From NCBI GenBank assembly GCA_001314815.1, contig LJXT01000001.1, positions 7,301 to 71,300 on the forward strand: a DNA stretch of 64,000 bases, in the 5' to 3' direction. Every line of letters starts with the position of its first letter. Position 1 is the first letter of the stretch. Below the pieces are notes generated by a model that was not told the origin of the DNA, did not search any database, and was given only the letters and a program-made list of their open reading frames with translations. Positions 9,339 to 63,967 of the stretch are shown piece by piece. The stretch is from Algoriphagus marincola HL-49 (GTDB taxonomy: Bacteria > Bacteroidota > Bacteroidia > Cytophagales > Cyclobacteriaceae). Both the position numbers and the translations under genes were made by a program.

Positions 9339-10514
9339 TCAAGTCTTTGATTTCACTTTTTTCAAAAATTCAGACAACCCTACAGCAAAAGTTCCCTCTG
9401 AAATAGGAAACTCTTCTTGGCCTGCATAGATAAAATACCTATGGGTAGCCTTAATATCCGCAGCTCCTGTAGAAAAGCCTTTGGATAATTTTGGACTTAG
9501 CGTCCGTTTGATTTCAATAGCCCAAAGTTCACTACCTAGCTGAATGATCAAGTCCAACTCCGCTCCTGCTGATGTACGATAGAACCCATAGTCCGCATTT
9601 TTTGGCAAAACGGATAGAATATTCTCAATCACAAAACCCTCCCAACTAAAACCCAATACCGGATGGCCGAGCAGGCTATCAAAGTTATTGATTTGAAGAA
9701 GTGTATGGGTAATGCCTGAATCCCGTATATACACTTTTGGAGTTTTCACCAAGCGCTTTCGCACATTTGCAGTCCAAGGACGCAAGGACCTGACTAATAG
9801 TAGATCTTCCAAAAGCTCCACATAGGACTTGACCGTGGGGGAACTGAGATCAAGACTTGCCCCAAACTTAGAGAAGTTGATCAGCTGTCCCTGCTCATGT
9901 GCGAGCATGGTCCACAACCTTCTCAGGCGATTGGTAGGTACAAACTGGGCAATTTGAGGAATATCTCTTTCCAGATAAGTAGTGATGAAATTTTGTCTCC
10001 AAGTCATACTGGACTTGTCCGAACTCGCCAAAAACGAGTCAGGAAACCCTCCCCGAAGCCAGAGCTTTTCTAAATTATCTTCATCACTTCCCACTTCTAA
10101 GATGGAGAAGCCAGCTAACTCTTCATATGCTATTCGTCCTGCCAGGCTCTCAGATGATTGTCGAATCAGCTCGAGAGAAGCCGATCCTAGAATCAGGAAT
10201 TGGCAAGAGCGCAAGCCATCTTTCCTATTTCGATCAATAACTCCCCTCAAAACTTGGAATAGATCCGGCATACGCTGGATTTCATCTAGGATGATGAGTT
10301 TGCCATCGTTCAACTCAAAGTATTGCTCTGGTTCTGCCAGTTTGGCTCGGTCACTTGGACTTTCCAGGTCAAGGTAAATGGACTCCTGATCAAAGTTTTC
10401 AGCCAAAGCTTGTGCAAGCGTAGTCTTTCCCACTTGCCGCGATCCTAAGATGGCAATGGCTGGGAAATCCGGCATTAATTCTTCGAGTCTTTTGTAAAGC
10501 AATCGTTTAATCAT
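9339..10514 (-). CDS. AAA_14 ATPase with winged helix and DUF4143 (PD-(D/E)XK-like) domain
   Basis: Walker A GSRQVGKT, Walker B IILDEIQ, ESLAGR, LRGGFP, TPKVYIRDSG, C-terminal ELDL..AIEIK. Confidence 0.92.
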   Translation of the reverse strand: MIKRLLYKRLEELMPDFPAIAILGSRQVGKTTLAQALAENFDQESIYLDLESPSDRAKLAEPEQYFELNDGKLIILDEIQRMPDLFQVLRGVIDRNRKDGLRSCQFLILGSASLELIRQSSESLAGRIAYEELAGFSILEVGSDEDNLEKLWLRGGFPDSFLASSDKSSMTWRQNFITTYLERDIPQIAQFVPTNRLRRLWTMLAHEQGQLINFSKFGASLDLSSPTVKSYVELLEDLLLVRSLRPWTANVRKRLVKTPKVYIRDSGITHTLLQINNFDSLLGHPVLGFSWEGFVIENILSVLPKNADYGFYRTSAGAELDLIIQLGSELWAIEIKRTLSPKLSKGFSTGAADIKATHRYFIYAGQEEFPISEGTFAVGLSEFLKKVKSKT

Positions 10515-10551
10515 CCTTGCAAATTTAAAATCATATTTTAAATTTGCAAGG
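10515..10551. promoter_or_regulatory. Perfect 17-3-17 palindrome containing the promoter of the ATPase gene
   Basis: CCTTGCAAATTTAAAAT-cat-ATTTTAAATTTGCAAGG. On the minus strand TTG-N19-TAAATTTG ends 5 nt before the ATG. Confidence 0.7.
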
Positions 10552-10580
10552 TAAAAAAATTAAAAATGGTTGATTTTCAA

Positions 10581-11456
10581 TTATTTATAACTTTTTCCCA
10601 AATCCACTTTCACGAATGCTCCGATCAAAGAAACTCCCGCTGTAATCAGAAAAAAGATCAGACTGAAAGCTACTGCTGCAGCCTCTTCGATTCCTGCATA
10701 CTGATGAGCATAGACAAAAACCAATTCACGGGCTCCTACACCCCCAATCGTCAGCGGAAGAACCGCCACGATGGAAGAGAGCAAAAAGACCAATTGGTAC
10801 GCCAGAACCTTCTCATCGATTCCTAAGGCCATCAAGATAAACCAAGCACAGATCAATTGAGCAATCTGTCCTGCAAAAGACCAGGCATTGGCTGACCAAA
10901 AAGAGGGAAGAAAATCTTTAAAAAGAAGCTTTTGGACTAGCCAAAAAGCAGGAATAGTCAGTATCAAGCCTCCAATCATCAAAGCGTTCCAAATTGAACT
11001 TTCCAAAAAATCCAGCTCTGCGTCCACCATCAAAAACAATCCAAACAATAAAAAAACGATCGCTACCAATCCTCCCAAACGATCCAAGAGCGCAGCCTGA
11101 AGCAGTTTTTTGACAGGAGTTTTGAATTGTTTATTGAGCAGGTAAACCTTGTAGCCATCTCCCCCGATGCCTCCAGGTAGAAACAAATTGTAAAACATCC
11201 CGACCAGGTATAATCGGAAGTTTAACTTTTCCGAGAGGTACAAATCAATATTCTTGAAATACTGATTTAATCTAACCGCAGTAGCCACCTTACTCAATAC
11301 AAAAAGGACAGTCGCCGGGATCAACCAAGGCCATTGAAGGGTTTGAATAATTCCTAAAAGCTGCCCAGTGTCAATCTTTCGAAAAACCAGATACAAAGCC
11401 AATCCGGTGAGGATGAGTTTGAGGAGTGTTTTCAGCTGGTTTTTATACTGATCCAA
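10581..11456 (-). CDS. Lysylphosphatidylglycerol-synthase TM region / YbhN (UPF0104) flippase-like membrane protein
   Basis: GMFYNLFLPGGIGGDGYK, LDRLGGL, LPLTIGGVGARE; multiple TM helices. Confidence 0.88.
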   Translation of the reverse strand: MDQYKNQLKTLLKLILTGLALYLVFRKIDTGQLLGIIQTLQWPWLIPATVLFVLSKVATAVRLNQYFKNIDLYLSEKLNFRLYLVGMFYNLFLPGGIGGDGYKVYLLNKQFKTPVKKLLQAALLDRLGGLVAIVFLLFGLFLMVDAELDFLESSIWNALMIGGLILTIPAFWLVQKLLFKDFLPSFWSANAWSFAGQIAQLICAWFILMALGIDEKVLAYQLVFLLSSIVAVLPLTIGGVGARELVFVYAHQYAGIEEAAAVAFSLIFFLITAGVSLIGAFVKVDLGKSYK

Positions 11457-62684: not shown

Positions 62685-62772
62685 ATTGTACCTTTTAAGA
62701 TACAGTTTGATCCTAAAATTGTACTTTTAAAGATACAATTCAACCCTTTTACTGTATCTTTGAAGGTACAGT
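62685..62772. promoter_or_regulatory. Three 22-bp imperfect palindromes at exact 33-bp period; the third contains the -7 element and overlaps the GTG start
   Basis: ATTGTACCTTTTAAGATACAGT (62685), ATTGTACTTTTAAAGATACAAT (62718), ACTGTATCTTTGAAGGTACAGT (62751); TATCTTTG at 62755-62762. Confidence 0.85.
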
Positions 62773-63967
62773 GGAAAACCTTTTAAAAAGATATCAATCG
62801 TTATTATCCAAGGTTCAACTTGGGTTTGAGAGAAATTTATCTTCCCAAATCAATTGGGAAGCAAGAGCTATTGGACTAAAAGGAGCACGTGGAACAGGGA
62901 AATCCACACTCATGCTTCAGCAAATCAAGAAGCGGGGGGATTTCTCCAAATCGGTATACATTTCATTAGATGACCTCTATTTCAAAAATAATACTGTCCT
63001 AGATACTGCTGAGCAACTTTATCGTGACGGGATCCGAAGACTTTATTTGGATGAAGTTCATAAATACCATGATTGGCAGCGGGAAATAAAAAATTTATAT
63101 GACTTCTACCCGGATCTAAAGCTGATCATTTCTGGATCTTCTATCCTTGAGCTTCAGAAGTCTAGTGTTGATCTAAGTCGAAGAGTTCTGTTTTATGAAT
63201 TACCGAGCCTTTCTTTTCGGGAATTTTTAGAATTAAAATATGGCATCATAATTCCAAAATTCACATTAGAAGAACTACAGAAAAATCATATTTCAATCGC
63301 ACAAAGTATTAAAGAAAAGCTAGATTCACCTCTCACCTATTTTCGTGAATTTCTAGAATATGGCGCTTATCCTTACTTTATGGAGGGGGTAACAGATTTC
63401 GGCTATCGGCTTCAGCAGGTCGTCAATGTAGTAATCGATTATGATTTACCTGAGGCCAAAGATATCTCGGTGGGCACCCAAAGCAAACTGAAAAAGCTTC
63501 TTTTTATACTCTCAGAATCAGTTCCCTTCACTCCGAATATTTCAAAACTTGCAACCCAACTTGAAACCACAAGGCCAATCCTATTGGAGATGCTCTATTT
63601 ACTTGAAGAAGCGCGTCTAGTCCGGAATCTGAGGTCCGCTAGCAAAGGAACTTCACTGCTTAATAAGCCTGAAAAAATTTATCTCTCAAACACCAGTTTG
63701 ATTCATAGTTTTTCTGAAAAAGGAAGAAATCAAGGAAATCTCAGAGAAACATTTGCCATTGACCAACTTCAAAATGCAGGCTATTCAGTCACATTCCCGA
63801 AACAGGGTGACTTTCTGGTTAATGAAACTTATTTATTAGAAATCGGTGGAGCGGGGAAAGGTTCGTCTCAGGTATCAAATTTTGAAAACCATCTTATCTT
63901 CTCAGACGATTTGGAAATAGGCTGGGGAAGAAAGCTCCCACTATTTTTACTTGGATTAATGTATTAA
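62771..63967 (+). CDS. AAA_14 ATPase with winged helix and DUF4143-like C-terminal domain
   Basis: Walker A GARGTGKS, Walker B LYLDEVHKY, SGSS, LSRR, YGAYP, PNISKLA..L, KPEKIYL, RETF, DFLV...EIGG.GK. Confidence 0.92.
   Translation: MENLLKRYQSLLSKVQLGFERNLSSQINWEARAIGLKGARGTGKSTLMLQQIKKRGDFSKSVYISLDDLYFKNNTVLDTAEQLYRDGIRRLYLDEVHKYHDWQREIKNLYDFYPDLKLIISGSSILELQKSSVDLSRRVLFYELPSLSFREFLELKYGIIIPKFTLEELQKNHISIAQSIKEKLDSPLTYFREFLEYGAYPYFMEGVTDFGYRLQQVVNVVIDYDLPEAKDISVGTQSKLKKLLFILSESVPFTPNISKLATQLETTRPILLEMLYLLEEARLVRNLRSASKGTSLLNKPEKIYLSNTSLIHSFSEKGRNQGNLRETFAIDQLQNAGYSVTFPKQGDFLVNETYLLEIGGAGKGSSQVSNFENHLIFSDDLEIGWGRKLPLFLLGLMY

Follow-up and report, generated by a model that had tools for sequence, protein, structure and literature searches.

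A Palindrome at the Start Codon of an AAA_14/DUF4143 ATPase-Nuclease Gene in Algoriphagus Is a Putative Promoter-Operator Read by Its Own Product

Introduction

Once a type II restriction-modification system has been transferred horizontally, its controller protein serves to restrain a dangerous nuclease. For cI of phage lambda, a dedicated repressor, regulation involves three operators and cooperative activation. Here we analyze a 37-bp palindrome that touches the start codon of an ATPase-nuclease gene in Algoriphagus marincola HL-49 (Bacteroidota; GenBank assembly GCA_001314815.1). The window, i.e., the whole stretch of DNA analyzed, comprises 64,000 nucleotides (contig LJXT01000001.1, positions 7,301 to 71,300), and coordinates given without a contig label refer to it. 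From the comparisons described below the palindrome is proposed to be a compact promoter-plus-operator cassette belonging to the ATPase-nuclease gene, a reading to which we assign a probability of roughly 0.7.

Mapped flavobacterial promoters carry a TAnnTTTG box at positions -12 to -5 (PMC9723704). The DUF4143 domain of the ATPase-nuclease is listed in the PD-(D/E)XK superfamily with its function given as unknown (PMC3424549). PDC-S01, an ATPase fused to a PD-(D/E)XK domain, is described as the fourth commonest defence candidate in prokaryotes and is a candidate only (PMC12988326). The literature found on DUF4143, COG1373, and PDC-S01 consisted of surveys and one superfamily catalogue, and it contained nothing on function, regulation, promoter or DNA target.

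Results

A Perfect Palindrome Adjoins the Start Codon

Positions 10515-10551 of the window read CCTTGCAAATTTAAAAT-CAT-ATTTTAAATTTGCAAGG, which is an exact inverted repeat (17-3-17) both by reading of the sequence and by a repeat finder. The arms (10515-10531 and 10535-10551) are 17 nt each and 100% complementary, and the spacer is the trinucleotide CAT. The end of the palindrome adjoins the ATG (10514-10512, minus strand) of the open reading frame (ORF) 9339-10514. Read on the minus strand the region is CC-TTG-N19-TAAATTTG-CAAGG-ATG. An earlier note on this DNA had claimed a perfect 37-bp palindrome touching the ATG, and within it a TTG-N19-box arrangement ending 5 nt before the ATG; both claims were confirmed.

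We refer to the region as a putative 37-bp promoter-operator cassette (10515-10551, minus strand) on the basis of its sequence, its conservation in the genus and homologues from at least 10 phyla. Position k of the cassette, counted in gene orientation, corresponds to window coordinate 10552-k. A -33-like TTG occupies cassette positions 3-5 (10547-10549, minus strand), inside the outer arm CCTTGCAA (10544-10551), and is also seen in the Bacteroidota cassettes; in relatives outside Bacteroidota this arm takes the form of a -35-like TTGCAA. The -7 box TAAATTTG (10520-10527, minus strand) has the consensus TAnnTTTG known from mapped flavobacterial promoters and is followed by CAAGG (10515-10519) and then by the ATG. 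The distal inner half-site TTAAAA covers cassette positions 11-16 (10536-10541, minus strand), with positions 13-14 as specificity bases of the AA class, as judged from symmetric covariation and from protein residues 224 and 226. The proximal inner half-site TTTTAA, judged from covariation and from the association with protein residues, covers positions 22-27 (10525-10530, minus strand) and overlaps the upstream edge of the -7 box.

The symmetry of the sequence also places a mirror-image -7 box on the plus strand (10539-10546), with a TTG at 10517-10519 and a predicted start near 10551-10552. This mirror promoter is oriented antisense to the upstream gene, whose 3' end it faces. The upstream gene, a co-directional neighbour of the LPG_synthase_TM family (10581-11456, minus strand; Pfam), lies outside the module and has its stop codon 29 nt from the palindrome. 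At 15 nt beyond the mirror promoter begins an 86-aa ORF (10566-10826, plus strand) that is antisense to the LPG_synthase_TM gene and is probably not a gene.

The Cassette in Other Phyla and on Plasmids

A profile of the orthologous subfamily retrieved 80 loci with 48-62% identity. These span Bacteroidota, Alpha-, Beta-, and Gammaproteobacteria, Verrucomicrobiota, Nitrospirota, Cyanobacteria, Acidobacteriota, Chloroflexota, Myxococcota, Spirochaetia, Thermodesulfobacteriota, and others. The arrangement CCTTGCAA-N21-TTGCAAGG, i.e., an 8-nt arm, 21 nt and the mirror arm, was found to end 0-1 nt before the ATG at 75 of 92 loci, representing at least 10 phyla. The palindrome often reaches into the first codons (ATCATCC...GGATGAT). 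Upstream neighbours were unrelated across phyla, with a clear terminator before the cassette at some loci. Metagenome contigs, scanned independently, showed the canonical geometry at 56 of 80 loci. A related clade carries a lone third half-site that is unable to pair.

Homologues were found in 119 plasmid records, 46 of them on conjugative plasmids, and the same cassette was present in a plasmid copy from Agrobacterium and in one from Dinoroseobacter. Phage records gave only 3 distant matches of about 30% identity. Judged from these sequences, the cassette travels with the gene and not with its neighbours.

Some plasmid contexts are recorded here in their own right. On plasmids of Rhodobacterales and Rhizobiales the gene and its cassette often lie directly after repC of a repABC replicon (e.g., Dinoroseobacter shibae pDSHI06, locus L246, 175-2664), and in several other plasmid records the match is at about 3.5-5 kb of the record. 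On an Agrobacterium plasmid the gene comes after one for a tyrosine recombinase. Thermus thermophilus pTT27 (L245, 1463-1500) carries a 38-nt variant cassette, CCTTGCTTTTTAGACATCGCAATGCTAAATTGGCATGG|ATG, together with D224/R226 in the protein, and its half-site class could not be assigned. For a DUF4143 gene on pTT27 of strain HB27 (TT_P0211), a 6.6-fold increase has been reported in the joint presence of plasmid DNA and Argonaute (PMC4406477). Our match on the HB27 plasmid is a truncated copy, starting from residue 78, and is possibly the same gene.

The Dyad Covaries With Residues of the Recognition Helix

Among 122 distinct cassettes 73% of the mirror pairs were complementary, compared with 17-35% when the dyad was slid by 1-3 nt and 58% in column shuffles; none of 500 shuffles reached the observed complementarity. 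Double changes numbered 335, against 164 ± 9 in the shuffles. Mismatches inside the cassette were G:T in 63 cases and A:C in 49, i.e., without a clear bias, and there is therefore little sign of RNA pairing.

The pairs 13/25 and 14/24 were complementary in 111 and 116 of the 122 cassettes, respectively, and together take three forms: AA/TT, GG/CC, and TC/GA. All 391 columns of the protein were scanned for mutual information with this inner half-site class. Column 226 gave 1.556 bits, which is the full class entropy, and column 224 gave 1.07 bits; each of the other 389 columns gave 0.77 bits or less. K226 with D224 was accompanied by GG/CC in all 20 cases and Q226 with S224 by TC/GA in all 14, and where position 226 was P, M, V, or T the class was AA/TT in all 32. 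When every mirror pair was compared with every column, the only low-entropy matches were those of pairs 13/25 and 14/24 with columns 226 and 224. A weaker association linked pair 11/27 to columns 225 and 229. On a tree built without the helix columns the half-site class changes at least nine times.

Replication on 53 new distinct cassettes, mostly metagenomic, gave no violation of the residue-226 rule. D-x-K went with GG/CC 18 times and S-x-R with GG/CC once; P/T/V went with AA/TT 22 times and S-x-Q with TC/GA twice. A possible fourth type combines S-x-S with CG or AG on the left (CG/CA, CG/CT, AG/CA). The Agrobacterium and Dinoroseobacter plasmid copies also obey the rule. The idea that the palindrome is an operator of the gene's own product is thus supported at the comparative level, by a conserved and covarying dyad and by an exception-free, replicated association with residue 226. 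The association is a statistical one; that the product of the gene binds the palindrome we regard as quite probable.

Promoter Elements Stand in Fixed Register to the ATG

Of the 23 Bacteroidota cassettes, 20 showed TTG-N19-TAnnTTTG (at least 5 of 6 matches) followed by 5 nt and the ATG. Given the location of the box in mapped promoters (-12 to -5; PMC9723704), the 5 nt to the ATG place the start at the G before the ATG or at its A. In A. marincola this predicted transcription start falls at 10514-10515 on the minus strand and would give a leader of 0-1 nt.

The cassettes from outside Bacteroidota carry elements of another kind. Thirty of 52 passed a strict sigma-70 test, compared with 14% of shuffles. 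Their elements were TTGCAA or TTGTAA, a spacing of 16-17 nt and CATAAT or TAAAAT, with TTGCAA as the commonest -35-like hexamer. In 26 of the 30 sigma-70-like cassettes the -10 hexamer ended 6-8 nt before the A of the ATG, in 21 of them exactly 7 nt. A Shine-Dalgarno core 5-12 nt upstream was found at only 1 of the 52 loci. The geometry is read as leaderless because Shine-Dalgarno sequences are almost absent and the promoter elements keep a fixed register to the ATG. The earlier note had placed the promoter inside the palindrome, and the comparison supports this, with elements appropriate to the phylum. Its leaderless reading found comparative support in the box position and in the near absence of Shine-Dalgarno cores, the start itself being a prediction. 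It is likely, as far as promoter geometry can tell, that the main transcript has a leader of 0-2 nt. A sigma-70 scan of the window found no promoter; in a genome of Bacteroidota this miss was expected and is uninformative.

In the wider family the -10/-7 element was present in the gene-proximal half only, and the mirror pairs 9/29 and 11/27 were asymmetric. A directional promoter is therefore superposed on the dyad. It had also been suggested that symmetry creates an antisense promoter. This holds for the perfectly symmetric Algoriphagus sequence, but the mirror element is not kept by the family at large. The mirror promoter is probably a by-product of the perfect symmetry in this lineage.

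Conservation and Loss Within the Genus

An orthologue, 75-83% identical, occupies the same place in eleven further Algoriphagus genomes, and in all of them the palindrome lies against the ATG. Among the 12 orthologues the mean pairwise identity was 98.5% for the arms and 39% for the 3-nt spacer, compared with 66% for the 36 nt upstream and 67% for third positions of the first 20 codons. By this measure the palindrome is under strong purifying selection. In one genome of the genus both arms had changed in mirror symmetry (CATTG...CAATG).

Repeated deletions in the genus have removed the ATPase gene and left the palindrome, or pieces of it, downstream of the LPG_synthase_TM gene. The relic in genome G002 retains the palindrome and the ATG (C95:23818-23854; L133, 2319-2355). 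In G060 (L137) 22 codons are left, and the palindrome is still perfect despite two mirror double changes (CCTTGTAGATTT / AAATCTACAAGG). Fragments of the palindrome were found in G023 (L146), G030 (L150), G021 (L159), and G010 (L158). Other genomes of the genus are truly empty sites, with the LPG_synthase_TM gene and no palindrome. As the relics keep the palindrome and the empty sites are without one, the palindrome is tied to the insertion.

Copy Number and Other Palindromes of the Genome

Crude gene calls were made across the complete assembly (3.8 Mb), and each start was scored for its longest perfect inverted repeat between -120 and +10. A perfect upstream inverted repeat of at least 17 nt was found at 3 of 2968 gene starts, and all three belong to DUF4143 paralogues. 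As a group the 13 DUF4143 paralogues exceeded other genes in upstream repeat length (Mann-Whitney p = 1.9e-6). Genome-wide, 55 perfect repeats had arms of 14 nt or more and spacers of at most 10 nt; most of these are A-run/T-run terminators.

The earlier note had raised the possibility that the palindrome is a dispersed repetitive extragenic palindromic (REP) element. We found at most one full cassette per genome across 62 genomes of the genus, tied to the gene or to its deletion remnant: in the 11 other genomes with a full cassette it abuts the orthologue in 10 and is the gene-deletion relic in G002. The remaining matches to the pattern in the genus were without the inner repeat and fit chance. 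A second half-site flanked the gene at only 3 of 75 loci, and there is therefore no hint of transposon terminal repeats. No Rfam 15 family matched at its gathering score, the best being generic hairpin matches at 22 bits against gathering scores of 47-91. An intrinsic-terminator scan did not call the palindrome, whose stem is A+T-rich and is followed by ATGATT without a T-run. The half-site 15-mer had one further exact copy in the 3.8-Mb genome (C142:11908); it is intragenic and non-palindromic, and we dismissed it as a chance match in a coding region.

The other DUF4143 paralogues of the genome provide observations of their own. Each of the starts at C57:4193, C144:18656, C172:13964, C162:4885, C99:8533, C181:3068, and others has its own, different palindrome or repeat at the promoter. 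The C144 paralogue has 17-nt arms that end 1 nt before the ATG, and the repeat of the C57 paralogue, ACCATGAAAA..TTTTCATGGT, overlaps the start codon ATGGTAAAA. An outer CC(A/T)TG core is common to several of these palindromes. A second DUF4143 paralogue within the window (62685-63967), with a GTG start at about 62771, is preceded by palindromic boxes of its own. The longest perfect palindrome of the genome (C89:20502-20548; 23-nt arms, AAAAACCATGCAATTTGAAAGTT-T-...) is of the operator type of another DUF4143 clade (loci L036-L042) and has no ATPase gene within 2.5 kb; it is either an orphan operator or doubles as a bidirectional terminator. A G+C-rich palindrome family, GGAGGGGAGG...CCTCCCCTCC, at C93:87-129, C87:31720-31762, C31:514-556, and C129:29816-29850 has a REP-like look and is unrelated.

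The Encoded ATPase-Nuclease

The gene (9339-10514, minus strand) encodes a 391-aa protein with an AAA_14 ATPase and a DUF4143 domain of the PD-(D/E)XK type, as recognized by Pfam and PADLOC, and with a winged helix seen in the structural model. Pfam scores were 91.7 bits for AAA_14 (PF13173; cut-off 27, E = 4.8e-26) and 153.7 bits for DUF4143 (PF13635; cut-off 28.1, E = 4.4e-45). PADLOC matched PDC-S01 (PDLC04790, E = 2.6e-91), and the protein belongs to the COG1373 family. Invariant among 30 homologues were G24, G29-K30-T31-T32 of Walker A, D77 of Walker B, and D321 and K336 of the nuclease, and E334 of the D..E-x-K motif was nearly so. The gene sits among cell-envelope genes, outside any defence island.

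An AlphaFold model (mean confidence score, pLDDT, 78.3) shows an AAA+ core, a winged helix and an alpha/beta domain with D321 and E334-x-K336. In the model the winged helix-turn-helix spans residues 194-263 approximately (9726-9935, minus strand), with helices at 194-206, 214-221, and 225-237 and strands at 241-244 and 260-263 (pLDDT about 78-91). The modelled recognition helix is formed by residues 225-237 (about 9804-9842, minus strand), with S224 and P226 as the specificity residues. Residues 224-229 cover the turn together with the opening turn of helix 3, where bases are usually read. The segment named in the earlier note as winged-helix corresponds to helix 2, the turn and helix 3 of the modelled domain.

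The best Foldseek match was Aeropyrum Orc1 on DNA (2v1u, E = 2e-6), followed by ORC subunits, Apaf-1, RuvB, and Cdc6; the structural matches are thus to AAA+/winged-helix proteins. Global TM-scores were low, at most 0.36 among these and 0.35 for 2v1u. A sequence search of PDB found no relative, and Pfam gave no match to a Cdc6/ORC family on the protein. On the model, the likeness to Orc1/Cdc6 is one of architecture and not of membership.

Discussion

The observations suggest the following scheme. The distal arm would offer RNA polymerase its TTG, and the proximal arm the TAAATTTG box. Transcription would begin at the ATG or one base earlier, and the message would be leaderless and need no ribosome-binding site. 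The AAA+/winged-helix/PD-(D/E)XK product would bind this DNA too, either as a symmetric dimer or as a larger assembly, with the start of the recognition helix (residues 224-229) reading the two inner half-sites. The inner half-sites are 11 bp apart, i.e., one helical turn, and lie between the -33/-35 and -7/-10 elements, overlapping the edge of the box. Of the two outer arms, one falls on the -33/-35 element and the other on the start region. Our guess is that the outer CCTTGCAA arms are held by a separate contact, a second DNA-contacting surface as in Orc1. Since the product would occupy -37 to +1, it would most likely shut the promoter off. Given binding, negative autoregulation is therefore a probable outcome, with the sign taken from position only.

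Several points weigh against this reading. A strict census of TTG-N18-20-TAnnTTTG gave 221 sites in the genome, 81 of them before long ORFs, which is too few for a leaderless class, and the leaderless-type geometry (4-5 nt from the ATG) was a minority, with 4 of the 81 strict matches. As background, untranslated regions shorter than 10 nt account for about 3.7% in B. thetaiotaomicron, and leaderless mRNAs for 5.5% in F. psychrophilum. The co-directional upstream gene is without a recognizable terminator, so that read-through transcripts are possible. Relic palindromes, some still perfect, persist after deletion of the ATPase gene; symmetry can therefore outlive the protein for a time, and mirror changes should be taken as a sign of selection with caution. 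Such relic symmetry could possibly stem from template-switch correction or from a second role. Well-supported branches force only two to four of the class switches, and the sign test on pairs was underpowered, with none discordant, so part of the residue-base association could reflect shared ancestry. Lastly, a column search for a determinant of the outer arms, which are strongly conserved, gave only high-entropy noise columns.

The palindrome could instead act as a hairpin in RNA or single-stranded DNA, where a 17-bp stem by the AUG on read-through transcripts ends or insulates transcription or else blocks translation, and no protein needs to read it. The predicted fold is stable (-19.6 kcal/mol, z = -5.4), the stop codon of the co-directional upstream gene is only 29 nt away, mirror-symmetric double changes would preserve a stem as well, and relic palindromes stay downstream of the LPG_synthase_TM gene after loss of the ATPase gene. 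However, the stem has no T-run after it and was not called by the terminator scan, empty-site genomes have no palindrome after the upstream gene, and in other phyla the register to the ATG is kept behind unrelated upstream genes and clear terminators. Neither the conservation of arm sequence, which goes beyond mere pairing, nor the promoter-type asymmetry superposed on the dyad is expected of a hairpin, and the same is true of the lone unpaired third half-site in the related clade. There was no clear G:T bias and no Rfam family, and the half-site class tracks the recognition-helix residue of the encoded protein. We therefore find a hairpin improbable as the explanation; it is physically plausible and may add insulation. 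A terminator of the upstream gene, considered separately, was ruled out by the empty sites, the unrelated upstream contexts and the terminator scan.

A protein-based alternative is that the palindrome is chiefly a DNA substrate or anchor, a cruciform-capable 'self' site for parking, loading or licensing, with any effect on transcription being secondary. The evidence that the protein reads the site, i.e., the residue-226 rule, applies equally here. The conserved PD-(D/E)XK motif, the AT-rich centre and the AAA+ module, which resembles that of Orc1/Cdc6 initiators, binders of inverted repeats beside their own genes, all fit, as does a recognized region of 37-45 bp, which is more than a simple repressor needs. 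Yet promoter elements and ATG register are co-conserved, which an operator needs and a mere anchor does not, and the genomes hold no second copy for the protein to act on. As the chief role this is unlikely, and such a function may coexist with regulation. It is very unlikely that the palindrome is a site for a host factor, or merely a strong symmetrical promoter, whose link to its own product is coincidental. Both arms do contain promoter-like elements in Algoriphagus and the outer arms covary with no protein column, but the cassette is conserved across phyla that have different sigma consensus sequences and no such shared regulator, the right outer arm has no promoter role and still mirrors the left, and residue 226 of the gene's own product predicts the class of the inner half-sites. 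Relic copies without the gene would also be expected of a mobile or neutral palindrome, such as a REP, a miniature inverted-repeat transposable element (MITE) or a template-switch product, that came to lie on the start codon by chance. We consider this extremely improbable, given that each genome has but one copy and that flanking repeats and second ends are absent, and given the constant tie to the AAA_14 plus DUF4143 family across phyla and the strong purifying selection.

A promoter-operator read by its own product thus remains the preferred interpretation. It would give PDC-S01 a defined putative DNA ligand of 37 bp, a predicted transcription start and a rule by which residues 224 and 226 specify two base pairs per half-site. 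It is unusual for a non-coding control cassette to be conserved among phyla whose promoter grammars differ, and this suggests how a single gene is expressed and restrained immediately after transfer into an unrelated host. More tentatively, and with considerable doubt, the 1.2-kb unit may be a host-independent, self-limiting gene that combines a dual sigma-70/Bacteroidota sigma-A promoter, a leaderless AUG and a self-read operator, and PDC-S01 proteins may be sequence-specific ATPase-nucleases programmable via residue 226 (P, K, Q). If so, such a plug-and-play unit would account for its occurrence in more than ten phyla and on conjugative plasmids, and the operator of a PDC-S01 gene would reveal the DNA specificity of the protein. 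The operator could then also be a 'self' site for release or assembly upon foreign DNA or stress. Should the cassette behave as predicted, it might find use as a broad-host-range, self-limiting expression element.

Compared with known systems, the locus resembles the controller proteins and their C-boxes (C.PvuII, C.AhdI), which share a palindromic operator (here putative) over the promoter of a nuclease-containing module, autoregulation by a helix-turn-helix dimer and leaderless or near-leaderless transcripts (both here predicted). In contrast to these, where C is a separate small protein that both activates and represses, the DNA-reading domain is here fused into the ATPase-nuclease, and the C-boxes are replaced by one 37-bp dyad with inner and outer elements. 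Archaeal Orc1/Cdc6 initiators and their origin recognition boxes (ORB) share the order of AAA+ and winged helix and the inverted repeats beside their own gene; the present protein differs by its low TM-score (0.35), the lack of a match at the sequence level and an extra PD-(D/E)XK domain, and its site is a predicted promoter. Lambda cI at PRM also has an operator over its own promoter and an mRNA start at the AUG (here predicted), whereas our locus has a single cassette and a protein with enzymatic domains. The Bacteroidota sigma-A promoter (-33 TTTG/-7 TAnnTTTG) is matched by TTG-N19-TAAATTTG in consensus and spacing, but here the box is 5 nt from the ATG, and outside Bacteroidota the cassette reads as a sigma-70 promoter. 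Both Pfam domains and the PDC-S01 models are matched by the protein, with the role of that family in defence being a candidate one. Altogether, the locus would be of a known kind, an autoregulated helix-turn-helix operator over a leaderless promoter as in controller proteins and lambda cI; what appears new is the fusion of the DNA-reading domain into an ATPase-nuclease, the conservation of the cassette across phyla and the simple recognition rule.

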